Below, piece by piece: positions 324 to 60,867 of a DNA stretch of 64,000 nucleotides. Each line of letters starts with the position of its first letter. Position 1 is the stretch's first letter. Both the position numbers and the translations under genes were made by a program. The DNA is from an uncultured Desulfobacterales bacterium (GTDB lineage Bacteria; Desulfobacterota; Desulfobacteria; Desulfobacterales; QNYZ01): positions 24,333 to 88,332 of the forward strand of contig CAZNZW010000002.1 in NCBI GenBank assembly GCA_964577615.1. Reading direction: 5' to 3'. Below the pieces are notes generated by a model that was not told the origin of the DNA, made no database searches, and saw only the letters and a list, made by a program, of their open reading frames with translations.

Positions 324-2147
324 ATGACGGCCAGCCATATCACCCGCCAGACTGTTCCCCAGGTCTTTAAAAAGGCCGTGTCGACTTTCGGCCACCGCGT
401 GGCCATGCGGCACAAGGCGCTGGGCCTGTGGCATGATATTTCCTGGATGCAGTACTACCGCCGGGTGCGGCGTGTCAGTGTGGCCCTGATATCAATGGGA
501 CTGAAAAAGGGCGGGCGCGTATCCATTATCGGCGATAACTGCCCGGAATGGATATTTGCCAGCATGGGCGTTCAGTGTGTCGGCGGCGTGGCCACCGGGG
601 TGTATGCCACCAATGCCTGGTCCCAGGTGGAATATGTGGTCAATAATTCCGAATCCGATTTTCTCTTTGTGGAAAATGAGGAACAGCTCGACAAGTGGCT
701 GATGTTTCGTGACAGGGCGCCGTCGCTTAAAAAGGTGATTGTCTGGGATACGGAAGGCCTGCGTAACTTCAAAGACCCACTGGTGATGACTTTTGACGAG
801 CTGCTCGCGATCGGGCGCAAAATAGATGACGCCGATCCGAGTCTGTTCGACGCCCGCTCGGTGGAAATTGATGGCGACGACCTGGCCGCGCTGATTTACA
901 CCTCCGGCACCACCGGTCCCCCCAAGGGCGCCATGCTGACCCATCGCAACTGCATCTGGATGGGACGGGCAATCACTTCGGCCAACCCGATGGCCAAAAA
1001 CGATGAAATCATGTCCTTTCTGCCCCTGTGTCATATTTTTGAGCAGCTTTTTTCGATTCTCGGACATATTACCGTCGGCTATACGGTGAATTTCGTGGAA
1101 CGACTGGATACTGTTACCGACAATATGCAGGAGATTTCGCCAACCGTCGCCCATGCCGTTCCCCGGATCTGGGAAAAGTATTACTCAGCGGTGCTGATTC
1201 GTATGTCCGACGCCACCTGGTTCAAACGAAAAGTGTTCCATCTGGCCTACGCGGTTGGACAAAAAAGGGCGGATCTGGCCATGCGCTTCAAGCCTGTTCC
1301 GGGATATCTGCAGGCGCTGGCTTATCTGGCCCATCTGACCGTTTTTCGCAAGCTCCAGGAACGGCTCGGATTTGAGCGGATCCGGGTGGCCTACTCGGGG
1401 GCGGCGCCCATTGCGCCGGTGGTACTGCGTTTTTTTCAATCCATTGGCGTGAACCTGATTGAAGGCTACGGGCAGACCGAGGGCACGGGGGTGACCTGCC
1501 TGTCGCCGCTGGGCCGGGTGAAATTCGGGACGGTGGGGCCGCCGTTGAAAGGATCCCAGATAAAAATTGCCGGTGACGGTGAAATTCTCGTCAAATCCCC
1601 GGGGGTATTCAAGGGGTATTTTAGAAACCCGGCCGCCACCGAAGCGGCGCTCAAAGACGGCTGGCTCTATTCGGGCGACGTCGGGGAAATCGATGCGGAC
1701 GGTTATCTGCGCATTACCGACCGTAAAAAGGATATTATCGTCACCGCCGGCGGCAAGAATATTTCACCGCAGTACATCGAAAACAAAATGAAAGCGAGTA
1801 TCTACATCAACGATGCCGTGGTCATCGGCGACCGGCGCAAATTTTTGTCGGCGCTGATCATGATCGACGAGGATAATGTCATCAAATACGCTCAGGACAA
1901 CAAGGTCCAGTTCTCCACCTACAAAGATCTGACCCGGGACGGACAGGTTGTCAAACTGATTCAAAAGGAAGTCGATCAGGTCAACGCCACTCTGGCCCGG
2001 GTGGAAAATATCCGCAAATTTACGATTCTGCCCAAAAAACTATACGAAGAAGACGGTGAGGTCACGCCCACGATGAAGGTCAAACGCAAATTCATCAACG
2101 ATGCTTTCTCTGACCTGATCGAAGCGATGTATAAGGGACCGCGGTGA
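324..2147 (+). CDS. Long-chain acyl-CoA synthetase (AMP-forming, FadD-like)
   Basis: 607-aa ORF with AMP-binding signatures 'LIYTSGTTGPPKGAMLTH', 'EGYGQTEGTG' and 'GWLYSGDVGEIDADGYLRITDRKKDIIVTAGGKNISP', plus C-terminal 'PTMKVKRK'. Confidence 0.85.
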   Translation: MTASHITRQTVPQVFKKAVSTFGHRVAMRHKALGLWHDISWMQYYRRVRRVSVALISMGLKKGGRVSIIGDNCPEWIFASMGVQCVGGVATGVYATNAWSQVEYVVNNSESDFLFVENEEQLDKWLMFRDRAPSLKKVIVWDTEGLRNFKDPLVMTFDELLAIGRKIDDADPSLFDARSVEIDGDDLAALIYTSGTTGPPKGAMLTHRNCIWMGRAITSANPMAKNDEIMSFLPLCHIFEQLFSILGHITVGYTVNFVERLDTVTDNMQEISPTVAHAVPRIWEKYYSAVLIRMSDATWFKRKVFHLAYAVGQKRADLAMRFKPVPGYLQALAYLAHLTVFRKLQERLGFERIRVAYSGAAPIAPVVLRFFQSIGVNLIEGYGQTEGTGVTCLSPLGRVKFGTVGPPLKGSQIKIAGDGEILVKSPGVFKGYFRNPAATEAALKDGWLYSGDVGEIDADGYLRITDRKKDIIVTAGGKNISPQYIENKMKASIYINDAVVIGDRRKFLSALIMIDEDNVIKYAQDNKVQFSTYKDLTRDGQVVKLIQKEVDQVNATLARVENIRKFTILPKKLYEEDGEVTPTMKVKRKFINDAFSDLIEAMYKGPR

Positions 2148-2168
2148 CGGCGGGCGGGATACGGAAAA

Positions 2169-2702
2169 GTGAGACAGATGACGGATATTTTTGACTTTAT
2201 GACAACCCATCACGTCGCGTACGCAAGACACGACCACCCGGCTGTTTTTACCGTTGCGGAGGCTGATCGGCTGGTACCGGATCTTCCCGGTGCCCGGACC
2301 AAAAATTTATTTTTAAGAGACGATAAAGGCAGACGCCATTTTCTGATCCTGATCCGGAGCGACAAGCGGGTCAATCTCAATAAGCTGGAAGGCCTGCTCG
2401 GCACAAAACGCATCCGCTTCGGGTCGGCACGGCGTCTGAAAAAACACCTGGGGGTCGATCCCGGCGCGGTGTCCCTTCTGGCCATTTACAATGATCCCCG
2501 GCACGCCGTGGAAGTCGTGATGGACCGGGATTTGTGGCAATCGGAAGCTTTCCTTTTTCACCCGCTGGTGAATACCAGCACCCTGGTGATGTCAAAGGCG
2601 GATATTGAGCGTTTCATGGCGGCCACCGGGCATGCGTTGACGGTTTTAGATGTTCCCGGTCAGGCACCCGTGGGTGGAGGGATTGTCAAGGCCGGCGTTT
2701 AA
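2169..2702 (+). CDS. YbaK/ProX-type aminoacyl-tRNA deacylase domain protein
   Basis: 177-aa ORF. 'ARTKNLFLRDDKGRRHFLILIRSDKRVNLNKLEGLLG' and 'FHPLVNTSTLVM' resemble the YbaK/ProX editing domain. The start is ambiguous (GTG 2169, ATG 2178 or ATG 2199). Confidence 0.65.
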   Translation: MRQMTDIFDFMTTHHVAYARHDHPAVFTVAEADRLVPDLPGARTKNLFLRDDKGRRHFLILIRSDKRVNLNKLEGLLGTKRIRFGSARRLKKHLGVDPGAVSLLAIYNDPRHAVEVVMDRDLWQSEAFLFHPLVNTSTLVMSKADIERFMAATGHALTVLDVPGQAPVGGGIVKAGV

Positions 2703-2724
2703 CAGGTAGAGCCGCCCCCTCTTG

Positions 2725-2886
2725 CTAACACCTGCCGCCCAGCACACAAACCTTCAGAAATTTTTTTTCCGCCCGCTTAAAATCCTTTTTCGAATAATGA
2801 TTCAGGTTTTCGGGTATCCGAAATTTTTTTCTGGCGGATTTAACCAGGCGCTTCACGCCCGTGTTCCCATATCTGGCTTTATCCAT
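2725..2886 (-). CDS. Small (53 aa) very basic hypothetical protein
   Basis: The ATG at 2886 follows a strong SD (minus strand GGGAGGTGGattcATG). The product is MDKARYGNTGVKRLVKSARKKFRIPENLNHYSKKDFKRAEKKFLKVCVLGGRC. It is co-directional with the sigma-54-driven ORF 120 bp upstream. I recognise no family. Confidence 0.45.
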   Translation of the reverse strand: MDKARYGNTGVKRLVKSARKKFRIPENLNHYSKKDFKRAEKKFLKVCVLGGRC

Positions 2887-3007
2887 GAATCCACCTCCCG
2901 TTAGAAATAACGAAAAAAGCATGTATCAGCTGGAGATGTTACCGATAAAACCTGCAGGCCGAATACACCCCGACCAACAGGATCTGCAGATGAGTCGCCA
3001 TTTTTGG

Positions 3008-3208
3008 TCAATTACTTACAGCGGCAATGATTTTCTGGGACTGCTGGATTAAATTCACGGCCTGCAGCTCGATTTCTTCCAGCTGCCTGCGGACGCGCTG
3101 GTCCAGATCTTCCCAGCTTTTGAATACCTGGCCGGTGGCCGCGCCGCCCACGTACACTTCCTTGTTGCGATTCATTTCAAGCTCACCGTTTCTGGCTTTG
3201 ATAATCAT
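3008..3208 (-). CDS. Small (66 aa) hypothetical protein, sigma-54-dependent by promoter prediction
   Basis: The ATG at 3208 has an SD (minus strand GAGAGGGAGcgctccATG). The C-terminal half 'EDLDQRVRRQLEEIELQAVNLIQQSQKII' looks helical or coiled-coil. A consensus sigma-54 promoter lies about 65 nt upstream. Confidence 0.5.
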   Translation of the reverse strand: MIIKARNGELEMNRNKEVYVGGAATGQVFKSWEDLDQRVRRQLEEIELQAVNLIQQSQKIIAAVSN

Positions 3209-3271
3209 GGAGCGCTCCCTCTCAAGTCATTCTTTTTCGGTTAACTGCGTGCATACCTGAAGAATAAATGT

Positions 3272-3287
3272 AGCAAACTCCGTGCCA
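3272..3287 (-). promoter_or_regulatory. Sigma-54 (-24/-12) promoter
   Basis: The minus strand reads 5'-CTGGCACGGAGTTTGCTAC-3'. This matches TGGCACG-N4-TTGCW exactly, with correct GG/GC spacing. It lies about 65 nt upstream of the ATG at 3208. Confidence 0.6.
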
Positions 3288-3555
3288 GCTGGCGGATATG
3301 TGGATAGTTGATTTAATATCAGTGAGATAGGTTTAATTTGTCTTTTTGCACCGACGGGATAGTGAAAAATATGAACTAAAATAGGGCAGAAACCGGACAA
3401 ATTATGGAAAAATTTTCACACCCGATCCATATTTAATCGAAACACATGCCATTCAGTCCTTGGGCGTACTGCCGGTATCATACGGAAGCGGCCTTTTGGC
3501 CTCGCACCTGAAATTGTCCGGCGGGATATAGTCGAACGTATCGGACAGGCCGGGT

Positions 3556-4719
3556 TTATCGATCATTGCCGGTGGGCGCTCCCGGGTAACGATCCGGTGT
3601 GGCCAGTTTGCCGGTAATCGCCTGAACCAGGTCATCCCGGCCCCGGCTTTTCAGCGGCTCGATCAGTTCCCGGTAAAAAGGCGGGCGGTGGCGGATGGTG
3701 ATGTCAAAGGGGGCGAGCATGTCCGGCGTGACATCGTCTTCGATAAAGGCGCGCGTCTGGTCCAGCCGGCCGAGGCCGACCAGGCCGAGCATGGTTCGCA
3801 CGCATTTTTCACACTTTCCGCAATTGAGCCGGTCGGGGACGTTGGCCAGGCAGACCCTGAAGTTCTGAAAGGCCGCCGGCCACTCGGAAACGATGCGCAG
3901 TTTTTCCATCCGGGGCAGTTCGGCATGGGCATGGTGAATACGCAGTTCATGGCTGGAATATAACGGGTCGAGCAGTGGGTGCGATCCGCAGGGGACCAGG
4001 TTGGGCAGGTCAAAGGAAGAGGCAATGTACAGCAGGTTGATCCGACTGGAAAACGCGTGGCCGGCCGCCGCCAGAACGGCGCCGAAAAAGTAATCCAGCC
4101 AGAGTGTCCGCTCGTCGCACAGATGGCGGATATTGGTATAGACGGGGATCAGGGAAATGTCGGCATCATCGGCCACCGCTGCCAGGGCCTGCCGGGCACG
4201 GTCAAAAACCGGATATTTCATGCCGCGTTCAACCACGCCGCCGATGTCGAACCCGTGAATGATCAGACCGTCCCGGATGGCGCCGGGGTGATCTGCCGGA
4301 AAGTGGCGCCGGTTCAGCCGCAGGGTGGCCAGCGAATCGATGCCGCCGGAGAGTACCATGGCCGCGCGGAGGGGCGACGGCGGTGTTGCAGCCTGCGCGC
4401 GCACCGGTATCTGAAGGTCAGGCGGCCGGTAGCGGCCGTGTGACCAGACGCGGACCAGGGCCATGGCCGTATCCAGCCCTTCTTTGAAATCAGGGCAGAT
4501 GGCGGGTGTCATGGCGATTCTTTTTTCCCCGAAATGCGTGGCGGGGATCAGGCTGCCCGCCAGAAAGGCTTCGGGAGAAATGGTGATACCGGCGCCAAAG
4601 GCGGCCGGTGTTTCGATATAGATGTCTTGCGCCGGTCGATCCCCGTCTTCCCAGACAACACGGGCCTGGACGCGGATCCGGTTGTTTTTTTCAATCCGTT
4701 TAAAATCAATTATCCGCAT
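3556..4719 (-). CDS. PP-loop (N-type ATP pyrophosphatase) family protein with QueC-like C-terminal Cys cluster; specific function unknown
   Basis: 387-aa ORF with SD AGGAGAA upstream. The PP-loop is 'MVLSGGIDSLATL' and the C-terminal cluster is 'CLANVPDRLNCGKCEKCVRTM' (CGxCxxC as in QueC). About 110 aa at the N-terminus have no motif I recognise. There is no N-terminal Cys glutaminase domain. Confidence 0.7.
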   Translation of the reverse strand: MRIIDFKRIEKNNRIRVQARVVWEDGDRPAQDIYIETPAAFGAGITISPEAFLAGSLIPATHFGEKRIAMTPAICPDFKEGLDTAMALVRVWSHGRYRPPDLQIPVRAQAATPPSPLRAAMVLSGGIDSLATLRLNRRHFPADHPGAIRDGLIIHGFDIGGVVERGMKYPVFDRARQALAAVADDADISLIPVYTNIRHLCDERTLWLDYFFGAVLAAAGHAFSSRINLLYIASSFDLPNLVPCGSHPLLDPLYSSHELRIHHAHAELPRMEKLRIVSEWPAAFQNFRVCLANVPDRLNCGKCEKCVRTMLGLVGLGRLDQTRAFIEDDVTPDMLAPFDITIRHRPPFYRELIEPLKSRGRDDLVQAITGKLATPDRYPGAPTGNDR

Positions 4720-5636
4720 GGATATTTCTCCTGTTTACCGGCCGTTATCCGTTCCACAACGCAGTCGATGATTTCCCCGGCGATATTCCGGCCCGTGGCG
4801 GCTTCGAGTCCTTTGAAACCAGGGGCGTAGTTGACTTCCACCACCAGGGGATCGCATCCTTTTTGCATCATCAGATCAACGCCGGCGATGTCGAGGCCCA
4901 CGGCCCGGGCTGCGCGGATCGACAGCTCCTGGATCGATGCCGGGGCGTCAAACAGGCGGCTGCGCCCACTGAGGTGGAAATTGGCCCGAAAATCCCCTGG
5001 CGCCGGGGTCAGGGCCTGGGCGCCGGCCACCCGGTTCCCAATCACCAGCACACGGATGTCCTGCCGGTCTTCCGGCGGCAGATAGCGCTGCACCAGAAGC
5101 CCCGGCCGCTTACCGGCCGGCCGGCCCAGATGCCCGGCCAGCATGGTCCGGGCCGTCTCGGCACTGTCGATCCTGAAAACCCCGCTGCCCTGGCGGTTGC
5201 TGACCTGTTTGATCACCACCGGATAGCCGCCCAGTTCATCGACGGCCCGGGGCAGCCCGGAAAAAGCATTGATGAAAACCGAATCGGGGAAGGGGATATC
5301 GGCCGCCGCCAGGGCCTGGAGGGTATAGAACTGATGCCGGCTGATCCGGATGGCGTCGAAATCGTTGATCACGGGAATGCCGGTCTGGCTGAACTGACGC
5401 ACCAGCGCCAGACACGACGGGCCGACATCGGCGCCCTGCCGGGGCAGGACGGCATCGGGAAGCGGATTTTCGTCTTCCCGGCAGAAAAATGCACTGCTGT
5501 TCAGGAAAGCGGGCCACAGCCGGTAAGGGTTCAGCACATCGACGATATGACCCTGCTGCGCGGCGGCCGCCATCAGCCGCCGGGTCGGGTGATAGGCCGG
5601 CCCCCTCACCGATATGATTCCAATTCGACAGGTCAT
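4710..5636 (-). CDS. RimK-family ATP-grasp ligase (alpha-L-glutamate-ligase-like)
   Basis: 308-aa ORF. 'GYPVVIKQVSNRQGSGVFRI', 'LLVQRYLPPEDRQDIRVLVIGNRVAGA', 'GDFRANFHLSG' and 'GLDIAGVDLMM...LVVEVNYAPGFKGLE' are the RimK ATP-grasp signatures. Its stop overlaps the next start by 10 nt, and its start overlaps the upstream stop (ATGA). Confidence 0.85.
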   Translation of the reverse strand: MTCRIGIISVRGPAYHPTRRLMAAAAQQGHIVDVLNPYRLWPAFLNSSAFFCREDENPLPDAVLPRQGADVGPSCLALVRQFSQTGIPVINDFDAIRISRHQFYTLQALAAADIPFPDSVFINAFSGLPRAVDELGGYPVVIKQVSNRQGSGVFRIDSAETARTMLAGHLGRPAGKRPGLLVQRYLPPEDRQDIRVLVIGNRVAGAQALTPAPGDFRANFHLSGRSRLFDAPASIQELSIRAARAVGLDIAGVDLMMQKGCDPLVVEVNYAPGFKGLEAATGRNIAGEIIDCVVERITAGKQEKYPCG

Positions 5637-6898
5637 GGTGTTTTTCTCCGCAGGTGTGCGGCCTGGGCTTCCGGCATCCAGACCCCCATTTGCTTGCCGG
5701 CGCGCGTGCTGAAAAACGAGGTGACCTTGCGGGTATTGTTGCGCCGGGCAATCGTCTGGGTGGCCCGGTTATCTTCGCTGATCAGGGAAAAAATGGGTCG
5801 ACCGTCGGCCCGGGCGGTGAGTGCCGCCAGCAGTTGGGTCGCGATACCCATCCCCCGGTACTCGGGTCGGACCGATGTGTACCCCCGTTCCAGATAATCG
5901 GACAGATCCAGACCGGTCTGTTCACTCAGAGCCGTGATATACTCGCGGCGGGGATGTTTGAGGCTGGAAACGGCTACCACCTGATCCAGTTCAGTCGCAT
6001 AGACAACCAGGAAAGCCCGCGTCAGATTATGCCGCATCCACCGGGTGCTCACGGAACCGCCGGCTTCGACCAGCTGGCAGATATCATCGAGGCGGGCGGC
6101 GGAAAGCGATTCGGGAGCGGCGGCCGGACGGGCAAAATGGCGCTGCATGTTTTCGCCAAGGGACACCACGCCCCGTGGCTGCTGCCGTACCCACCAGCGC
6201 CGGACGCGGACTGAGCCATAGGTGTCCAGATAGAGGAGCAGGTGCGCCGGCCCGGGCAGGGCGCGCCAGAACGGCCGGCCGGTAAGAAACGGCAGACGGG
6301 CGTGCTTTTCGGTCAGGGATTTGAAGGCAGCCTCCGGGCCTGGAAAACGGGCCGCGGCCGGCGTCGCCAATTGCCAGGAATGGACGATATTCGGATTGCC
6401 AATGGCAAAGCGCAGCAGGGCCGGGTCGGGATCCGATCCAGCGTCCGGGGGGAAAACCACGTGGTTCCAGATCCCGGCCTTTGCGTGCGCGCGCAAAATC
6501 CGGATCAGGCGGGGCAGCGGGCCACGCGGCGAGAGCCATTCGATGAGACGGATTCGGGACACGGAAACCGGCGCGTTGTCCGGGTCTGGGCCGGTATCAT
6601 CCAGCCGGACCCTCACCGCCAGCCCAGGGGCCGCCGATGGCAGTTCCAGCGCGGCATCAAGGGCGAGAACCTGGGCCCGGCTGAGCGGGGAAGACAGGTA
6701 TGCGGTTCCGATTTTCAGAAGCCGGGCCTGCGCCGTGATGTACGCGGCCGCGGATGTTGGCGAAACCGGCAATTCTGAAGGGTCATTTTCCGCAAAAACG
6801 GTCAAGACCCGTTCCAGTGACAGGGAGGGGAAATCGGGGGAAACCGGCGCCGGAGAGATTGGACGGATGTGAAGCGGGTGGTCTTCAAGCGGGTCCAT
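5633..6898 (-). CDS. Hypothetical protein with C-terminal GNAT acetyltransferase domain
   Basis: The C-terminal ~130 aa '...VVAVSSLKHP...RGYTSVRPEYRGMGIATQLLAALTA' carries the GNAT acetyl-CoA motif (R/Q-x-x-G-x-G/A). The ~270-aa N-terminal region is unrecognised. I prefer the ATG at 6898 with SD AGGGGGA over the TTG at 6904 used by the ORF track. Confidence 0.65.
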   Translation of the reverse strand: MDPLEDHPLHIRPISPAPVSPDFPSLSLERVLTVFAENDPSELPVSPTSAAAYITAQARLLKIGTAYLSSPLSRAQVLALDAALELPSAAPGLAVRVRLDDTGPDPDNAPVSVSRIRLIEWLSPRGPLPRLIRILRAHAKAGIWNHVVFPPDAGSDPDPALLRFAIGNPNIVHSWQLATPAAARFPGPEAAFKSLTEKHARLPFLTGRPFWRALPGPAHLLLYLDTYGSVRVRRWWVRQQPRGVVSLGENMQRHFARPAAAPESLSAARLDDICQLVEAGGSVSTRWMRHNLTRAFLVVYATELDQVVAVSSLKHPRREYITALSEQTGLDLSDYLERGYTSVRPEYRGMGIATQLLAALTARADGRPIFSLISEDNRATQTIARRNNTRKVTSFFSTRAGKQMGVWMPEAQAAHLRRKTP

Positions 6899-6956
6899 CG
6901 TCAAATCCCCCTGCTGTATCGGGTCATATGGGCTGTGAAAAACGTTTTCCGTCCAT

Positions 6957-31963: not shown

Positions 31964-34909
31964 TTACCGGGCGACAGAGCGGATCACCTCAACGGAAAAT
32001 TCTTCGATGTCAGATGGCAGATTTGCAAAAACAATCATAAATGGCGCTGTTTTGCCAGGGGGCACTTTGAGACTGCCGGCGCCCGCTTTATTTGACAGGT
32101 TTTTCTGTATGTCGGCCAGGGCTTTGGTGCCCAGATCCTGATCAGAAAGGGAATTGCCGCAATAAACTGATCGGGCCTTGATCAGTTTTCCCCCCTTGGC
32201 AAAAATGTTGCCTTTGATCAGAATCGATCCCCGGGGCTGTTTGTACTGATTGAGCACTTTGCCGGTAATGACGAACAGCCGTCCCGAATTATTGCTGGTG
32301 ACGAACTTGCTGTCGATTCCCACTGTTTTCAGCTGCGCGTTACCCGGATCATTGGCCACCTGCTGCGTGCCGGCGCCCATCATGTTGCTCAAGTAGGGAA
32401 TTTTAATTCCCATCATATTGAATAGATACAGACCGCCCAGCAGCAGCGCTATGAGTAAAAGGGCAATCAATGACTTCCGGCTTTTCTTTTTTGGGAACGC
32501 GGCGTCTTCCACAACAGGGCCCAATGTTTTGGCTTCGGAGTCTTTGACGGGATCTAATTTCAGCCTGGCAGTTGTTTTGGATTCCTCCGCGGGTGACGTG
32601 CTGTCCAGAGGAGGCGGCCCGGCCGCGGCGGATTCAGCCGGCTTTTCGGCGCCTGTTTCAGCCTCGTCGGTCAGGGTCTTTTCCATTGCCATGTCAATGT
32701 CTTCGAAATCGAGGCTTCCGGATTCAATCGCCGGTTGACTTTTATTTACATCCGATAAATTTTCTTTGGAAGGCAGGTCCCCCGCTTTCGGGCTCTGGCT
32801 GTCTATCTCCAGATCTTCCAGGCTCAGGTCATCCATGCCCGGATCGGCCATTCCCTGGTCGCTCAGGCCCATATTTTCCACGGCCAGGGTATTGTTGTCT
32901 GCTTCCATGAGAGACTCATCGGTGACTTCCGCCGGCGCAAGCAGCTGGTCCAGAATGGGGAGGTCGATCTCGTCATCTTCGCTGTACCCGTCTTCCAGGT
33001 CGGGGCGTTCAAGGTTGACGTTAAGCACTTCCGCCTGTTTTCCCTTGTCAGTATCCAGCGTAATACTGACATCCTTGTCAAAGGCCTCTTTCGGGGCCGG
33101 GGCCACTTCTTCGATGTCTTCTATCTCAATATCCAGTGGCTCATCGGTATTGGGGGACTGGTCTTTGGCGTTTAACGGCGGTTCTGCCGGCTCGGCCGGC
33201 GCGGTGGCTTTCGGGCCAGGATCCAAATCCAGATCAAGCATGTCTACCTGTTTCGTATCCAGGCCAAACGCCTCATCCAGGCTTTCGTCTTCAAGGTCGT
33301 CAAAGTCCAGGTCAAGTCCTTCGATTTGCTGAGTGTCCAGAGAAATCTCCTCCGTGGATGGATCGGGTATTTCCGGGTCCAGCTGATCCAGTTCAAGGTC
33401 AAGATTCTTGATTTGTTTGGTGTCCAGGACGAAATTGTCATCCAGGACCTCGTCTTTACTATCCGGCTGTTCCGGTTCGAAATCGAAATCGATATCGTCA
33501 ATCTGTTCGGTACTCAGAATATCCTCTTCAGTAGAGCCCTCTGCTTCAGAAGCTTCGGGAGCGGCTTCGGGGATCTCCAGTTCTTCCAGCTGGATACCGA
33601 GATCGCTCAGTTGCTGTACTTCCGAGATGTTTTCTCCAGTGGCCGCCTCACTCGGCTGGGGAGGTATCTCTTCGATATTTTCCAGTTCTAAATCAAGGTC
33701 CTGAATCTGAATGGTGTCCAGATCGATATCACCGTCCAGTTCCACGTCTATATCCGGATGCTCAGGTTTGGATGCAGACAATTCTGATTTGAACATTTCA
33801 TCAAGTTCACCGTCAAGATCGGATAAGTCCAGCTCTTCGGATTCCACCTCATCGATCAGGCTGTCCAGCGCCATGCCAGGTTCACCGTCGAGATCCATTG
33901 ATTCCGATTCCGGTGCATCGCTTTTGTCGACAGACAAATCAGACATCTCATCGTTTCCGAGAATATTATCGAGTTTATCAGAAAGATCGCTAATTTCCTG
34001 ATCTTCTGTCGTCGTATCCATTGAATCGGTGTTTTGTGCTTCTTCGCTCAATGGCGCCGCCTGCGGCTTATGGGTATCGGGTCCCAGAAGCTCGTCAAGT
34101 CCGGCGGTCAGGTCAGCCATCTCAATATCTTCAGAATCAGTTAAAGATGCTGCCGCAGGGCCGGACGGCATGGCTTGTATTTCTGAATCAATGTCCTCAA
34201 GCTGGATTGAATCAAGGTCAATGCCGCCATCGGGTACTGGAGGTTCATCTCCCGCCCCATCAAGCTCGTCGCCAAGAGTAGACAGGTCCAGGACATCAAT
34301 GTCCGGATCATATCCTGCCGGGTCCGGTTCATTCGTGTCTGTCGCACTTTCCGCCAGGTCGCCGGATAACAGATCGAGGTCCTCATCGAGATCAGATAAA
34401 AGATCATCCTCTTCCTTCAGGCCGGGCTCTGCCATCCCTTTCGCCTGATCTGTTTCATCCGTTGCGGAAAGAAGATCATCCATCTCATCTGAACCAAGGA
34501 TTTTATCCAGTTCGTCAGTTAGATCGTGCATGGTCGGGTCTTCGGCCCCGCCGGTAGCCGGGGAGTCCAGGTGTTTCCCGTCCGTTGTTTCGTCCGATTG
34601 TGCGAATAGCGAAGCGGCGCCCGCCGCCGCTCCCAGTGTTCCACCGATCCCCGCTGCCAGATTCGATATTTTGCTGCCGCCGGGTTTTGCTGAAGACGCT
34701 GCATCGGGGACATCCGGTGTTGCCTCATCCGTCAGTTCCGTTCCGCTTGCCCGGGGCGACGGGGGGGGAGATTGGACATCTTCGGCAGAAGGGGGAAAGG
34801 CAACAAAAAGATGCTGGCATCTGGAGCATTTAACCCTGGACCCCGATGGCTTGATGCGGTCGTCATCAAGGAAATAATCCGTAGCGCACTGCTTGCAAGT
34901 AATGATCAT
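31964..34909 (-). CDS. Zinc-ribbon (MJ0042-type) / polyacidic repeat / single TM / DUF3426-like C-terminal domain protein
   Basis: The start is taken at MIITCKQC (ATG 34909, SD AGGAG). The zinc ribbon is 'CKQCATDYFLDDDRIKPSGSRVKCSRCQHLF' (CxxC-N19-CxxC). Over the next ~750 aa, about one residue in three or more is D/E by eye. The TM segment is 'SLIALLLIALLLGGLYLFNMMGI'. The last ~146 aa resemble DUF3426 ('GRLFVITGKVLN...PFMIVFANLP'). Confidence 0.85.
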   Translation of the reverse strand: MIITCKQCATDYFLDDDRIKPSGSRVKCSRCQHLFVAFPPSAEDVQSPPPSPRASGTELTDEATPDVPDAASSAKPGGSKISNLAAGIGGTLGAAAGAASLFAQSDETTDGKHLDSPATGGAEDPTMHDLTDELDKILGSDEMDDLLSATDETDQAKGMAEPGLKEEDDLLSDLDEDLDLLSGDLAESATDTNEPDPAGYDPDIDVLDLSTLGDELDGAGDEPPVPDGGIDLDSIQLEDIDSEIQAMPSGPAAASLTDSEDIEMADLTAGLDELLGPDTHKPQAAPLSEEAQNTDSMDTTTEDQEISDLSDKLDNILGNDEMSDLSVDKSDAPESESMDLDGEPGMALDSLIDEVESEELDLSDLDGELDEMFKSELSASKPEHPDIDVELDGDIDLDTIQIQDLDLELENIEEIPPQPSEAATGENISEVQQLSDLGIQLEELEIPEAAPEASEAEGSTEEDILSTEQIDDIDFDFEPEQPDSKDEVLDDNFVLDTKQIKNLDLELDQLDPEIPDPSTEEISLDTQQIEGLDLDFDDLEDESLDEAFGLDTKQVDMLDLDLDPGPKATAPAEPAEPPLNAKDQSPNTDEPLDIEIEDIEEVAPAPKEAFDKDVSITLDTDKGKQAEVLNVNLERPDLEDGYSEDDEIDLPILDQLLAPAEVTDESLMEADNNTLAVENMGLSDQGMADPGMDDLSLEDLEIDSQSPKAGDLPSKENLSDVNKSQPAIESGSLDFEDIDMAMEKTLTDEAETGAEKPAESAAAGPPPLDSTSPAEESKTTARLKLDPVKDSEAKTLGPVVEDAAFPKKKSRKSLIALLLIALLLGGLYLFNMMGIKIPYLSNMMGAGTQQVANDPGNAQLKTVGIDSKFVTSNNSGRLFVITGKVLNQYKQPRGSILIKGNIFAKGGKLIKARSVYCGNSLSDQDLGTKALADIQKNLSNKAGAGSLKVPPGKTAPFMIVFANLPSDIEEFSVEVIRSVAR
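33221..33727 (-). repeat. In-frame coding repeats inside the polyacidic protein
   Basis: Four copies of a ~16-aa motif x-LDT-x-Q(I/V)-xx-LDL(E/D)(L/F)D: 'IDLDTIQIQDLDLELE', 'FVLDTKQIKNLDLELD', 'ISLDTQQIEGLDLDFD' and 'FGLDTKQVDMLDLDLD'. A degenerate copy 'IDLDSIQLEDIDSEI' lies further N-terminal. A second duplicated motif is 'DLTDELDKILGSDEMDDL' / 'DLSDKLDNILGNDEMSDL'. Confidence 0.6.
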
Positions 34910-34994: not shown

Positions 34995-35010
34995 AGCAAT
35001 ATGCATGCCA
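34995..35010 (-). promoter_or_regulatory. Sigma-54 (-24/-12) promoter upstream of the polyacidic protein gene
   Basis: The minus strand reads 5'-TATGGCATGCATATTGCTTG-3', i.e. TGGCAT-N5-TTGCT. This is one mismatch to TGGCAC, with correct GG/GC spacing. It lies about 85 nt upstream of the ATG at 34909. Confidence 0.55.
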
Positions 35011-56634: not shown

Positions 56635-57513
56635 TTAATTACGGTTAATATCCCGATGCGTGACCACGACTTCGCGATCCGGACGGGCAATATGCGTGTA
56701 TACTTCCTGCGCAATGACCACTGACCGGTGGTGGCCGCCGGTACATCCAATGGCAATCGTCAGGTACGCCTTTCCTTCTTTTTTATATAATGGCATCAGA
56801 TAGTCAAGCAAATCCAGATAGCGGGCCATAAATCGGCTGGTCTGGGCGTCTTGCAGGACGAATGATTTCACCTGCTCGGCCGTGCCGGTCAGGGGCCTGA
56901 GCACCGGATCAAAATAGGGGTTCTTTAAAAAGCGGACATCCATAATATGGTCGGCATCATGGGGGATGCCATGCATGAAACCAAATGACATAATATGGAT
57001 ACGCATGGGAATGTCAATGTTGTGGGCCCGGGCAATCTGCTGGATAACGCTTTTCAGGTCGTGCACCGTATATCGACTGGTGTCGATAATCCGGTCCGCT
57101 TCATTTTCCAGGTGGCGCAATTGTTTTTTGTCTGCCTCGATACTCGCCAGAAGGTTGGTCCCGTCGTGAAACGGATGGTGCCGCCGGGTTTGACTGTAAC
57201 GCTGCATCAGGGTTTCGGTGTCTGCGCAAAGGAAAAGCAGGGTGAACGCAAACCCCTGTGTTTTCAGATTGCGGATAATATTCTGGTATGAATTGAGGAA
57301 ATTTTTTTCCCGTGAATCCATGACAAACGCGTAGCCCTTGGCCGTCAATCCCCTGCTTGTAATCAGTTCTGTAAATTTAGGTAAAAGGGCCATCGGCATA
57401 TTGTCCACACAATAGAAACCGGTGTCTTCCAGGGCCGCGAGTGCGGTGCTCTTCCCGGAACCGGCATGGCCGGTGATGATAATGAACTGCAGTGATTCGG
57501 AAGGCGAGGGCAC
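56635..57513 (-). CDS. rapZ: RNase adapter protein RapZ (YhbJ)
   Basis: 292 aa with Walker A 'GHAGSGKST', 'DVRFLKNPY' and C-terminal 'IGCTGGHHRSV'. Confidence 0.9.
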   Translation of the reverse strand: MPSPSESLQFIIITGHAGSGKSTALAALEDTGFYCVDNMPMALLPKFTELITSRGLTAKGYAFVMDSREKNFLNSYQNIIRNLKTQGFAFTLLFLCADTETLMQRYSQTRRHHPFHDGTNLLASIEADKKQLRHLENEADRIIDTSRYTVHDLKSVIQQIARAHNIDIPMRIHIMSFGFMHGIPHDADHIMDVRFLKNPYFDPVLRPLTGTAEQVKSFVLQDAQTSRFMARYLDLLDYLMPLYKKEGKAYLTIAIGCTGGHHRSVVIAQEVYTHIARPDREVVVTHRDINRN

Positions 57514-57516
57514 CGG

Positions 57517-57975
57517 TTAAAAATCCTCATCGCTGGACTGGATAACCGTGTATACTTCATCGGCATTCCGGGCGTTTATCAACGCCTGACGGAACAGGTC
57601 GTTTTTTAACAGCCGGGAAATCCGGGCCAGGAGCTTGAGGTGCAGGCCGGCGGCCTCTTCGGGCGCCAGGAGGAGAAAGAAAATGTACGTCCGTTTGCCG
57701 TCAATGGATTCGAAATCGACGCCTTTGCGGCTCAAGCCAACCCCCATCACAAGGGAAGGCAGGCCTTTCAGTTTGCCGTGGGGAATACCGATGCCATTGC
57801 CGATACCCGTGCTTCCCAGCCGTTCGCGGCTCATGATGCCCTCTACCAGGGTGTTTTGATCCGTATGCGTCAGCTGCGCAATGGGGGTGATTAATTCCTC
57901 GATCACCCCCATCTTGTCCGTTGCTTTCAAATCGGTGACAATGGCTTCTTTTTTCAGCATGTCTAACAGTTTCAT
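57517..57975 (-). CDS. ptsN: Nitrogen-related PTS EIIA (EIIA-Ntr)
   Basis: 152 aa. 'ERLGSTGIGNGIGIPHGK' contains the active-site His. The gene order rpoN-hpf-ptsN-rapZ supports the call. Confidence 0.85.
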   Translation of the reverse strand: MKLLDMLKKEAIVTDLKATDKMGVIEELITPIAQLTHTDQNTLVEGIMSRERLGSTGIGNGIGIPHGKLKGLPSLVMGVGLSRKGVDFESIDGKRTYIFFLLLAPEEAAGLHLKLLARISRLLKNDLFRQALINARNADEVYTVIQSSDEDF

Positions 57976-57982
57976 GGGGAAA

Positions 57983-58510
57983 CTACCTGTTGGGTTGAAT
58001 CAGTCCAAAGTCTCCGTTTTTGCGCCGGTATAATACATTAACCGTTTCGCTGCGGGCATCCGTAAAGACGAGGAAATTATCTTTGATTAATTCTAACTGC
58101 ATGATCGCCTCTTCGATGTCCATGGGCTTGTATTCGATGGACTGGACGACGATGCGCTGGGCGGTTTCGGGTGCCGCCGGGGCTTCTTCGGTGAGCGCCT
58201 GTATTTTTCCCCGTCGCTGGCCTTTATGGTCACGGACCTTTTCCCTGTTTTTCTTGATCTGAATATCTAATTTGTCCATCACTTTATCGATGGAAGAGTA
58301 CATATCCTCGGTTTCTTCCTTACCCATTATATTTAAACGGTCACCGATAATGTTAATCTCTGCCGTGTGACGAAATTTTTCCACGGAAAGAACGACATTG
58401 GCACTGGCCGGATTGTCCAGATATTTATCGAATCGATCCAGTTTCGAGCTGACGTAATTCGACAGATGGTCTGATGGTTCGATTTTTTTAAAAGTAACAG
58501 ATGTTTGCAT
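57983..58510 (-). CDS. hpf: Ribosome hibernation promoting factor (long HPF)
   Basis: The start is taken at MQTSVTFKKIEPSD (ATG 58510, SD AGGAGG); the 273-aa track ORF is an upstream extension. It has an S30AE domain and a C-terminal dimerisation domain 'VVQSIEYKPMDIEEAIMQLELIKDNFLVFTD'. Confidence 0.9.
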   Translation of the reverse strand: MQTSVTFKKIEPSDHLSNYVSSKLDRFDKYLDNPASANVVLSVEKFRHTAEINIIGDRLNIMGKEETEDMYSSIDKVMDKLDIQIKKNREKVRDHKGQRRGKIQALTEEAPAAPETAQRIVVQSIEYKPMDIEEAIMQLELIKDNFLVFTDARSETVNVLYRRKNGDFGLIQPNR

Positions 58511-58712
58511 GCAGGCCTCCTTTTTATTAAAGAAACAGTTTAAGGGTGCGCCTAACGGGGGTGAGACAGTGTTTTTGTTCCTGGGTTGCCAGTTGACTGT
58601 ATCGGGTGGTCTGGGAAAATATCGAAATACGCCGGGCCTTTCTGCGCAATGAGGTTTTAACCGATGCGCGTCGGAGGATTGGAATCGGTCATTCATGCAG
58701 GCGCATGATGGA

Positions 58713-60140
58713 TCAACAAAGCTGTTTGCGTTTGCTCGATGGTAAAATATTAAGCAGTTCCCGGTATTTTGCAACTGTCCGTCTGGCAATATTGATGTTG
58801 TCATTTTCTAAGATTTCGCAGATTTTCTTGTCGCTGTATGGTTTTTTCGGGTTTTCCGATTCAATAATATGTTTGATTTTATCTTTGACGCTGGCCGAAG
58901 CAATCGCCTCGCCATGAAATCGATTGATGGGACTGTTGAAAAAATACTTCAACTCGAAAATGCCCTGGGGCGTGTATGCGTATTTGTTGGTTGTGACGCG
59001 GCTGATTGTTGATTCATGCATCTCAATATCTTCGGCCACATCCCGCAATACCATCGGTTTTAGGTGGCCGACGCCCTTTTCGAAAAAATCCCGCTGAAAA
59101 CGCAGAATGCTTTCCATGACCCGGTAAATGGTTTTTTTCCGCTGGTAAACGCTTCGGATGAGCCAGGTGGCCGAGCGAAGTTTTTCGCGGATATACTCTT
59201 TTTCCTTGCCTGATACCTGGTCGGCTCCCGTGAGACATCTGCGATAAAGCGCATTGATCCTCAATCGGGGCAGGCCGTTATCGTTGAGCAGGATGACGAA
59301 TTCGTCGTCGTATTTATAAACATGCACATCGGGCGTGATGTGTCGCGGCGGTTCATCTGAATATAGCCGCCCCGGTTTGGGTTCCAGCCCCTGGATGATC
59401 TTAACGGCCTGCAGTACCTGCTGGCGATCGGCGCCGAGCGCCCGGCAGATGGCGGTGATGTTCCGGTTTTCGAGATTTGTCAGGTGGTGCGAAATAATAT
59501 CTTCCACCAGGCTGTTTTCCAGCCCCAGGTGTCTGGCCTGGATCAGAAGCGATTCCGGCAGATTGCGGGCGCATATGCCCAGTGGATCGAACCGCTGCAT
59601 TAAGCCGAGCACCTGCTCGACGGTTTCCGGTGACGTGGTGACCAGCCCGGCAATTTCATCCACGGAGACATCCAGATACCCATCGGCAGTCAGGTTTCCC
59701 ACAATCAGACTGCCGATTTCTTTTTCCAGGTCACTGGGGCCGGTCATCATCAGCTGCCAGAGCAGGTGGTCCTGCAGGGATTGTTTTTTAACCAGAAAAC
59801 GGTCAAATTCAGTATGCTCCCGCCGCTCGATTTCATAACTGGTCCGGCCGGGGGTGTTGTATTCATCGATAAAATTACGCCAGTCGACGTCGTCGGGGAT
59901 ATTGCCGTCAAACTCGACTTCATCCGGGCCTTTTGTTTCAGCGGTCTCGGATTCTTTCTTAACCGGTTGTATTTCTTCCTCAACAGCTTCTTCGAGTACC
60001 GGATTCTCCTGCAGTTCCTGCTGAATTGTTTCCATCAGCTCCAGGCGGGATAACTGCAGAAGTTTAATCGCCATCTGAAGCTGGGGCGTCATCACCAGCT
60101 GCTGGGTCAGTTTGAGTTGTTGTCTGAGTTCAAGAGCCAT
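58713..60140 (-). CDS. rpoN: RNA polymerase sigma-54 factor
   Basis: 475 aa. Region I is 'LKLTQQLVMTPQLQMAIKLLQLSRLEL', followed by an acidic region II. The RpoN box is 'ARRTVAKYR'. Confidence 0.95.
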   Translation of the reverse strand: MALELRQQLKLTQQLVMTPQLQMAIKLLQLSRLELMETIQQELQENPVLEEAVEEEIQPVKKESETAETKGPDEVEFDGNIPDDVDWRNFIDEYNTPGRTSYEIERREHTEFDRFLVKKQSLQDHLLWQLMMTGPSDLEKEIGSLIVGNLTADGYLDVSVDEIAGLVTTSPETVEQVLGLMQRFDPLGICARNLPESLLIQARHLGLENSLVEDIISHHLTNLENRNITAICRALGADRQQVLQAVKIIQGLEPKPGRLYSDEPPRHITPDVHVYKYDDEFVILLNDNGLPRLRINALYRRCLTGADQVSGKEKEYIREKLRSATWLIRSVYQRKKTIYRVMESILRFQRDFFEKGVGHLKPMVLRDVAEDIEMHESTISRVTTNKYAYTPQGIFELKYFFNSPINRFHGEAIASASVKDKIKHIIESENPKKPYSDKKICEILENDNINIARRTVAKYRELLNILPSSKRKQLC

Positions 60141-60141
60141 T

Positions 60142-60867
60142 TTATGATAACCGAAATTCGTCCCCTAAATAGATACGTCTGGCGGTTTCGCTGGCGGCGA
60201 TCTTTTCCGGAGATCCGGATTCGATGACTTTTCCATCACTTAAGATGTAAGCCTTGTCGCAAACCGTCAAGGTTTCCCTGACGTTGTGGTCTGATATCAG
60301 GGTACCGATGCCACGATCTTTCAAATGTCCGATGATTTTTTTAATGTCGATGACAGCCAGCGGATCAATCCCGGCAAAGGGCTCATCCAGCAGCATGAAG
60401 GCCGGATTCGTGACCAGGGCCCGTGAAATTTCCAGCCGGCGTTTTTCACCGCCGGACAGCACGGCGGCTTTCTGGCTTCCCAGATGTTTGATACCCAGCT
60501 CTTCAAGCAGCTGATCGGCTCTCTTTTTCTGATCGGCACCGGACAGCGGCATGGTTTCAAGAATGGCCAGCAGGTTCTGGCGGACAGTGAGTTTTCGAAA
60601 AATGGATGTTTCCTGGGGCAGATAGCCGACCCCTTTGCGGGCCCGCTGGTACATGGGGTTATCGGTTATATCCACGTCATCGAAAAAAACCTGGCCGCTA
60701 TCGGGCCGAATCATGCCGATGCTCATGTAGAACGTTGTTGTTTTCCCGGCGCCGTTGGGCCCCAGAAGGCCCACAACACGTCCGCTCTCTATATCCATGT
60801 TGACGGAATCGACCACGCGGCGTCCGCCATAGGTTTTCTGAAGGTTTTTTAATGCGAGCCGGTGCAC
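60142..60867 (-). CDS. lptB: LPS export ABC transporter ATP-binding protein LptB
   Basis: 241 aa with 'GPNGAGKTT', 'LSGGEKRRLEISRAL' and 'LLDEPFAGIDP'. It lies between lptA and rpoN. Confidence 0.9.
   Translation of the reverse strand: MHRLALKNLQKTYGGRRVVDSVNMDIESGRVVGLLGPNGAGKTTTFYMSIGMIRPDSGQVFFDDVDITDNPMYQRARKGVGYLPQETSIFRKLTVRQNLLAILETMPLSGADQKKRADQLLEELGIKHLGSQKAAVLSGGEKRRLEISRALVTNPAFMLLDEPFAGIDPLAVIDIKKIIGHLKDRGIGTLISDHNVRETLTVCDKAYILSDGKVIESGSPEKIAASETARRIYLGDEFRLS

Follow-up and report, generated by a model that had tools for sequence, protein, structure and literature searches.

Comparative evidence for a probable sigma-54-dependent, enhancer-activated unit encoding two small orphan proteins in Desulfobacterales

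Does a well-formed sigma-54 promoter that stands in front of two very small reading frames really serve them, and what kind of unit would it make of them? Promoters of this class give no transcription until an ATPase activator dedicated to the task turns them on. We take up this question for a region near the start of a 64-kb stretch of DNA from an uncultured Desulfobacterales bacterium (contig CAZNZW010000002.1; the whole stretch of 64,000 nucleotides is called the window here), where a -24/-12 element on the minus strand is followed by two open reading frames (ORFs), ORF-A and ORF-B, the window's members of what we call families A and B. From comparison with other loci that carry these families, we read the region as a sigma-54-dependent, enhancer-activated unit for two small cytoplasmic proteins, a reading to which we give a probability of roughly three in four. 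The promoter and the two genes are laid out as follows.

3272..3288, minus strand: sigma-54 promoter CTGGCACGGAGTTTGCT, written as a 17-mer that includes the leading C; the orthologous element is kept
3215..3219, minus strand: Shine-Dalgarno sequence GGGAG of ORF-A; GGAGC is invariant in a six-locus alignment
3008..3208, minus strand: ORF-A, 66 amino acids, with homologues, codon statistics and an AlphaFold2 model
2891..2899, minus strand: Shine-Dalgarno sequence GGGAGGTGG of ORF-B; AACGGGAGGT is invariant in seven loci
2725..2886, minus strand: ORF-B, 53 amino acids, with homologues, codon statistics and an AlphaFold2 model

The 16-mer TGGCACGGAGTTTGCT runs from 3287 to 3272 on the minus strand and is preceded by a C at 3288. 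Its two doublets, the -24 GG at 3286-3285 and the -12 GC at 3274-3273, are exactly 10 bp apart, and it agrees with TGGCAC-N5-TTGCW at 11 of 11 specified positions. The original prediction, made from the letters of the window, had called a full -24/-12 match on this strand, and that call is confirmed with coordinates that were one base off. No other exact match to TGGCAC-N5-TTGCW is present in the 64 kb, where 0.14 are expected; because 13 of 100 shuffled windows contain at least one such match, the window by itself does not exclude chance, and it is the comparative data that settle function. The element is intergenic and has the same orientation as ORF-A, with 63 nt between its 3' end and the ATG (about 65 nt had been claimed, with a good Shine-Dalgarno sequence, which is the GGGAG listed above). 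It lies inside the AT-rich gap of 345 bp between ORF-A and the stop codon, at 3556, of an upstream gene for a 387-residue protein. GC content across 3226-3450 is 0.35-0.39, compared with about 0.55-0.65 in the flanks, which agrees with the earlier remark that the DNA upstream of the promoter is AT-rich; the neighbouring operon, placed about 270 bp away in the same account, ends at 3556, 268 bp from the promoter. A sigma-70 promoter was looked for in this region of the window and none was found. Elsewhere in the window, a weaker sigma-54-like site, TGGCATGCATATTGCT, is seen at 34995-35010 on the minus strand, about 85 nt upstream of a gene (31964-34909, minus strand) for an extremely acidic repeat protein of about 980 residues with an N-terminal zinc-ribbon (MIITCKQCATDYF...CSRCQHLF) and a C-terminal membrane segment.

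We now consider whether the two reading frames encode proteins. ORF-A is near neutral (isoelectric point, pI, 6.2; median net charge of family A, -3) and has four close homologues at 71-73% identity. A codon comparison over seven orthologous loci gives a ratio of non-synonymous to synonymous substitution (dN/dS) of 0.05-0.15 with synonymous sites saturated (synonymous divergence, pS, 0.6-0.8). ORF-B carries 17 Lys/Arg residues, has a net charge of +13 and a pI of 10.5 (family B median net charge, +4), and has six homologues at 54-81% identity; its dN/dS at orthologous loci, over a range that leaves out the rows of locus L011, is 0.04-0.11, again with saturated synonymous sites. A longer, 65-residue reading of ORF-B from 2922 is possible and is not preserved by the orthologues. 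What had been described beforehand as a Lys/Arg-rich 53-residue ORF with an excellent Shine-Dalgarno sequence about 120 bp further on is therefore found with its 17 Lys/Arg, its GGGAGGTGG and a distance of 121 nt. The broader claim that both are real small proteins, for which a conservation and coding check had been proposed, is borne out by dN/dS of 0.04-0.15 across the two, by invariant Shine-Dalgarno sequences and by homologues in many Desulfobacterales metagenome-assembled genomes.

Beyond these close relatives, an exhaustive profile search yields 30 representatives of family A, mostly of 61-114 residues, that share the motif MIIK-x4-ELE-x6-VY-x-G-x4-GQ-x-F followed by a helical tail. A degenerate DNA pattern places the family at 39 loci in species-representative genomes, all of them metagenome-assembled and nearly all labelled Desulfobacterales, Desulfobacteraceae or Deltaproteobacteria. 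Family B comprises 36 clusters by profile search and occurs on at least 120 metagenome stretches, with the invariant core F-R-I-[PS]-E-N-L-x-x-Y-S-x-x-D-x-x-x-A-E-K-K-F-L-K (also seen as FRI[PS]ENLNHYS..D...AEKKFLK). Neither ORF has a match in Pfam, NCBIfam, PHROGs or PADLOC, and profile searches of the PDB returned only noise for both. The AlphaFold2 model of ORF-A has four short beta strands and a 34-residue C-terminal helix (mean confidence, pLDDT, 87.9), that of ORF-B three helices (pLDDT 79.4), and Foldseek found no match to either model in the PDB at E <0.9. In the literature we found no description of the two families. By sequence, A and B are two orphan families found almost only in Desulfobacterales. 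The charge and predicted helical hairpin of B suggest a binding protein, with nucleic acid, the ribosome or an acidic partner as its target; A may be a partner or modulator that dimerises through its helix.

Two details of the families stand apart from this. Some A members (P0050 and P0060; L028 4358-, L049) carry C-terminal extensions with repeated RRSGxDRR / ERR. Three B members (P0022, P0023 and P0028) bear the JGI name "RuvB subunit", which we set aside after domain and structure searches gave no RuvB match.

With both families in hand, the promoter can be followed across loci. In the close clade (L001, L002, L003, L011, L015 and L026), TGGCAY-N5-TTGC occurs 59-69 nt before the ATG of A; since it is kept at all of these loci even though synonymous sites are saturated at pS 0.6-0.8, the promoter is conserved beyond neutral expectation. 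More widely, 33 of 44 A-family loci have a site that agrees at 9 or more of the 11 positions within 300 nt, compared with 3.4% of shuffles, and most of these sites are 45-94 nt from the ATG. The same threshold is reached at 57 of 87 distinct loci where B comes first, compared with 5% of shuffles, mostly at 46-119 nt from the ATG. Several loci that appear to be promoter-negative have the composite site farther upstream, behind a long leader. That an element is retained where synonymous sites have saturated argues that the earlier claim of a genuine sigma-54 promoter was right.

If the promoter is of this class, then an activator site is expected upstream, and the original prediction had put one in the AT-rich DNA there. 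The candidate parts are these.

3403..3420, minus strand: putative site for a bacterial enhancer-binding protein (bEBP), TGTGAAAATTTTTCCATA, agreeing with TGTGAA-N6-TTCACA at 10 of 12 positions
3357..3378, minus strand: second T-rich block, tagttcatatttttcactatcc; it contains a TTTTCAC half-site, some 80 bp before the -24 element
3301..3329, no strand assigned: AT-rich DNA between enhancer and promoter, with two weak matches to the site of the DNA-bending protein IHF

TGTGAAAATTTTTCCATA has its centre 124 bp upstream of the -24 element, counted from the TGG. With the -24 element of each unit as anchor, we scored the 190 nt before it for agreement with TGTGAA-N6-TTCACA. We find an 18-bp palindrome, TrTGAA-N6-TTCACA, at 10 or more of the 12 positions in 52 of 76 distinct units drawn from both families, as opposed to 1.1% in shuffles. 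The palindrome centres are not spread evenly: they cluster upstream of the TGG at 70, 80, 104-106, 114 and 125 bp, most of them at 104-106 bp. The steps are of about one helical turn (~10 bp), as activation from one face of the helix predicts. A positioned palindrome common to so many units favours the earlier placement of an activator site in this DNA, and the search for bEBP motifs in 3290-3450 that had been suggested turns up the candidate at 3403-3420. No description of this palindrome was found in the literature. The GTGAAAA and TTTTCAC elements that had been noticed before are present, the distal one (GTGAAAA) inside the conserved 18-bp palindrome (3420..3403), a block that is conserved in the close-clade alignment. 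In an alignment of six orthologous upstream regions the second T-rich block has invariant columns (T192, T194, T195, C197 and A198), and it may be a weaker activator half-site. Of the GGATAGT repeat reported earlier, the two copies do exist. They read ACTATCC on the minus strand and fall within ~3357-3365 and ~3301-3309, but the repeat is not kept at orthologous loci.

Between the palindrome and the promoter, 42 of 72 units have an IHF-like match to WATCAANNNNTTR at 8 or more of 9 positions, 34-35 bp before the TGG, compared with 22% of shuffles. The window's own candidates are TATCAGTGAGATA at 3317-3329 on the plus strand and AATCAACTATCCA at 3313-3301 on the minus strand, each matching at 7 of 9. 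Taken together, the comparisons show purifying selection on the promoter, on the enhancer site and on both coding regions.

Two further occurrences of the palindrome lie outside these units. A copy that agrees at 9 of 12 positions, TGTGAAAAACGTTTTCCG, is found at 6934-6951 in the window, in the divergent gap between a GNAT-like gene and a B12-radical-SAM gene, and no sigma-54-like site of 8 or more of 11 positions was found near it. At locus L054, an 89-residue ORF (3226-3744, plus strand; probably about 69 residues from MSIEMLDKRF...) with two GFI-x3-Q-x3-L repeats has its own composite of palindrome and sigma-54 site, which suggests that the regulon includes further small proteins.

How the two genes are expressed relative to one another depends on the DNA between them.

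2887..3007, minus strand: A-B spacer, 121 nt, with neither a sigma-54 nor a sigma-70 motif

The order A-then-B, with a spacer of about 115-125 nt, is found in 8 distinct lineages (the window, L001, L002/L026, L003/L015/L075, L011, L086, L152 and L170). The reverse order, in which the promoter precedes B and about 16 nt separate the two genes, is found at 11 or more loci (L041, L050, L061, L081, L084, L091, L100, L106, L146, L169 and L179). Linkage in two gene orders argues for a shared function, and A and B would then act together. The two families are also found apart: of 44 A loci 34 are solo, as are most of the B loci. In the window, the spacer can form a hairpin followed by UUUUAU; its fold is not significant (z = -1.3), with no covariation worth noting. 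With neither a promoter motif nor a significant fold in the spacer, B is most simply read through from the promoter of A. No convincing terminator was found after ORF-B. The possibility that the region is instead a small RNA or riboswitch was considered and rejected: Rfam matches only a tRNA elsewhere in the window, the spacer shows no structure that is significant or covarying, and the coding signature is strong.

A third small gene, with no copy in the window, is found behind its own sigma-54 promoter (TGGCAYrTTATTTGCT) at L001 (11126-11377, minus strand), L002 (9424-9672, minus strand), L003/L005 and L026. It encodes a Cys-rich protein of 60-64 residues, MEYPWESEDA.SQCLQCDNFNFGDRD..GPLTCRVF.

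The sigma factor itself is encoded in the window.

58713..60140, minus strand: rpoN, encoding sigma-54, 475 amino acids, with the Pfam domains Sigma54_AID, Sigma54_CBD and Sigma54_DBD

These domains are matched with E values from 3e-16 to 4e-62, the RpoN box reads ARRTVAKYR, and the gene stands in a canonical cluster (56635-60867, minus strand) of an lptB-like ABC ATPase gene, rpoN, hpf (S30AE), ptsN (EIIA-2) and rapZ. Two loci of the close clade, L001 and L002, have an orphan bEBP gene about 5.5-7 kb downstream of ORF-A. Since Desulfobacteria encode 50-69 enhancer-binding proteins per genome, the largest sets known (PMC12316311), sigma-54 promoters are common in this clade.

From these parts we propose the following mechanism. 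RNA polymerase with sigma-54 would sit on TGGCACGGAGTTTGCT and be held there as a closed complex. A bEBP encoded elsewhere in the genome would bind TGTGAAAATTTTTCCATA, 124 bp upstream; the AT-rich DNA in between would bend, probably with the help of IHF, so that the activator reaches sigma-54; and the activator would spend ATP to open the promoter in answer to a signal. The transcript would begin near 3261, the predicted transcription start, and it would encode ORF-A and then, by read-through of the 121-nt spacer, ORF-B. If all units respond to one orthologous activator, as their common palindrome leads us to infer, then they would form a single regulon; the recurrence of A, B and the enhancer at dozens of Desulfobacterales loci points to one shared small-protein regulon that has gone undescribed.

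Several observations weigh against this account of an enhancer-activated unit. About one quarter of A loci and one third of B loci are without a good site within 300 nt. At 15 or more A-family loci the element takes the form GTGCAC-N5-TTGCA (GTGCACGCTTTTTGCA), in which the near-invariant GG at -25/-24 is replaced by TG, a substitution that is unusual for sigma-54. These loci (L023, L024, L025, L029, L031, L032, L042, L043, L045, L051-L053, L055, L057 and L060) have the variant placed like canonical sigma-54 sites relative to both the enhancer and the ATG. A second class of variants (L033, L038, L048 and L056), which recurs at that position too, keeps TGGCAY and has TTGA or TTGT at -12. In the window's own upstream region, the second T-rich block is only a half-site, agreeing at fewer than 7 of 12 positions as compared with the full palindrome, and the IHF-like sites, at 7 of 9, are weak. 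No gene for a GAFTGA-type enhancer-binding protein is present within the 64-kb window, and such a gene is found at just 4 of 181 loci. The co-transcription of B with A is deduced from the layout of the genes, and the hairpin in the spacer could be a leaky terminator. Finally, what we say about the functions of A and B amounts to guesses from charge and predicted fold.

An entirely different role for the two proteins is raised by the genes upstream.

3556..6904, minus strand: enzyme operon encoding a GNAT-like protein of 423 amino acids, a RimK-family ATP-grasp protein of 308 and a PP-loop-motif protein of 387; linked to the A-then-B subclade only

The RimK-family ligase scores 162 bits against TIGR00768, above the cutoff for that model, and is below the equivalog cutoffs for RimK, LysX, MptN and CofF. 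The 387-residue protein (3556-4719, minus strand) contains the motifs SGGIDS and C-x10-CGKCEKC, which bring QueC-type enzymes to mind; as it has no match in Pfam, NCBIfam, the PDB sequences or PADLOC, it too is an orphan family and its "PP-loop" label comes from these motifs alone. A gene for a B12-radical-SAM methylase of the KedN5 family is divergent from the operon. One could suppose that A, B or both serve as precursor or scaffold peptides, much as LysW or the precursors of ribosomally synthesised and post-translationally modified peptides (RiPPs) do, that they are modified by the three enzymes, perhaps along with the methylase, and that the promoter supplies the substrate on demand.

For one subclade the arrangement is suggestive. 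The 387-residue protein is encoded directly upstream in every A-then-B locus with enough upstream sequence, usually along with the RimK-family and GNAT-like proteins (the window, L001, L002/L026, L003/L015/L075, L011, L152 and L170). The linkage persists down to 63% identity of the 387-residue protein and about 45% identity of A (L152 and L170). In L001 an insertion splits the RimK gene from the gene for the 387-residue protein, and the latter stays contiguous with A and B. Within the linked subclade the C-terminus of B, CV[LI]GGRC, is invariant, and a search of the DNA from the enzyme operon to A gave no terminator. Across the families as a whole the picture is a different one: clustering of neighbours puts the enzymes beside A only in the A-then-B subclade, and elsewhere A and B are found among unrelated housekeeping genes, so that most members of both families do without these enzymes. 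B proteins with similar Cys tails (CIIGQRC, CIIGGKC) occur without them too. What is conserved in B is the helical core, not the variable core peptide that a precursor would have, and its tail varies family-wide; the C-terminus of A varies even within the linked subclade. A and B have a promoter and enhancer of their own after a 345-bp gap, and share these with unlinked family members. A fold is predicted for each of the two proteins, neither a protease nor an exporter nor a RiPP recognition element was noted, and the synteny could be plain inheritance within one clade.

The subclade synteny thus keeps the precursor reading alive, while the distribution across the families, the promoter that A and B have to themselves and their folded models all speak against it, and we consider it unlikely. 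The original prediction had likewise ranked precursor peptides as the less likely choice, and the fact that both families mostly occur without the enzymes supports that ranking; the linkage to the 3556-6898 operon that it asked about is complete in the A-then-B subclade and lacking for most family members. An evolutionary form of the same idea, in which A and B of this subclade were taken from a larger regulon of free-standing Desulfobacterales small proteins to become carrier or scaffold substrates of the three enzymes and the methylase, is to us equally doubtful. It would be of consequence if true, since small proteins made by the ribosome and tailored by enzymes, with an enhancer-binding protein gating their supply, would form a new class. 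As a separate observation on L001, its insertion (795-6391) contains three two-component genes, for an HD-domain response regulator and two hybrid histidine kinases.

Could the palindrome belong to another kind of regulator, such as a dimer of the CRP/FNR type or a repressor, with the GTGCAC-N5-TTGCA variants or even the whole set not being sigma-54 promoters? Its half-sites, TGTGA/TCACA, equal the consensus half-sites of CRP, the canonical GG is absent at 15 or more loci, and no gene for an enhancer-binding protein is found nearby. However, the half-sites are spaced as TGTGA-N8-TCACA, compared with N6 for CRP, and the site is 70-125 bp from the -24 element in steps of about 10 bp with an IHF-like site in between, which is the geometry of an enhancer and not that of class I or class II activation by CRP. 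Moreover, no sigma-70 promoter was found in this region of the window, and the variant sites hold the same positions as the canonical ones. We regard this explanation as quite improbable, somewhat more so than the precursor reading.

Least credible of all is that A and B form a toxin-antitoxin-like addiction or neutralisation pair in which a basic protein is checked by an acidic partner: the two small genes are adjacent with opposite charge tendencies (median +4 for B, and +13 in the window, against -3 for A) and are linked in both orders, but pairing is not obligate given the solo A and B loci, Pfam, PADLOC and PHROGs gave no match, the neighbourhoods are chromosomal and housekeeping with no mobile elements noted, and sigma-54 enhancer control is atypical for toxin-antitoxin modules.

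Returning to the enhancer-activated unit, a conserved promoter together with a conserved enhancer marks genes with products that are important in response to one particular signal; in this case they are the genes of two families in Desulfobacterales, which are major sulfate reducers of marine sediments. The inducing condition is usually what makes it hard to assign a function to a small protein, and a defined 18-bp enhancer offers a handle for pulling down the activator, listing the regulon and finding that condition. The GTGCAC variants, if active, would in addition provide a test of how far sigma-54 needs its GG doublet.

How does this unit compare with known systems? Its mechanism is a textbook one, and by sequence its architecture is that of a classical promoter with sigma-54, activator and IHF; it is the small-protein families attached to it that are uncharacterised. 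The closest likeness is to the PspF-dependent pspA promoter and similar sigma-54/bEBP/IHF promoters, which share the -24/-12 element, an upstream palindromic activator site at roughly 80-130 bp, an IHF site or bendable AT-rich DNA between the two, a small effector as output and an activator encoded elsewhere. Unlike pspA, where the enhancer serves one operon, here one enhancer serves many scattered single-gene units, and A and B have no sequence or fold in common with the Psp proteins. The palindrome also recalls the sites of NifA (TGT-N10-ACA) and CRP (TGTGA-N6-TCACA) in its outer TGT...ACA, in its half-sites TGTGA/TCACA and in a helix-phased position about 100 bp upstream. Written in the same terms it is TGT-N12-ACA or TGTGA-N8-TCACA, which fits neither consensus, and no nif genes are associated with it.

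For the linked subclade, the comparison is with RimK and S6 and with LysX and LysW, where the gene of a small protein likewise adjoins that of a RimK-family ligase. S6 and LysW present acidic C-terminal acceptor residues to their ligases, whereas A ends in ...AAVSN and B in ...GGRC, and the linkage is confined to one subclade. A and B also resemble the orphan small proteins of bacteria (50-70 residues) that comparative genomics or ribosome profiling has brought to light, being short, conserved, unannotated and restricted to a clade; what sets them apart from other such proteins is a regulatory input that is unusually well defined and common to two families.

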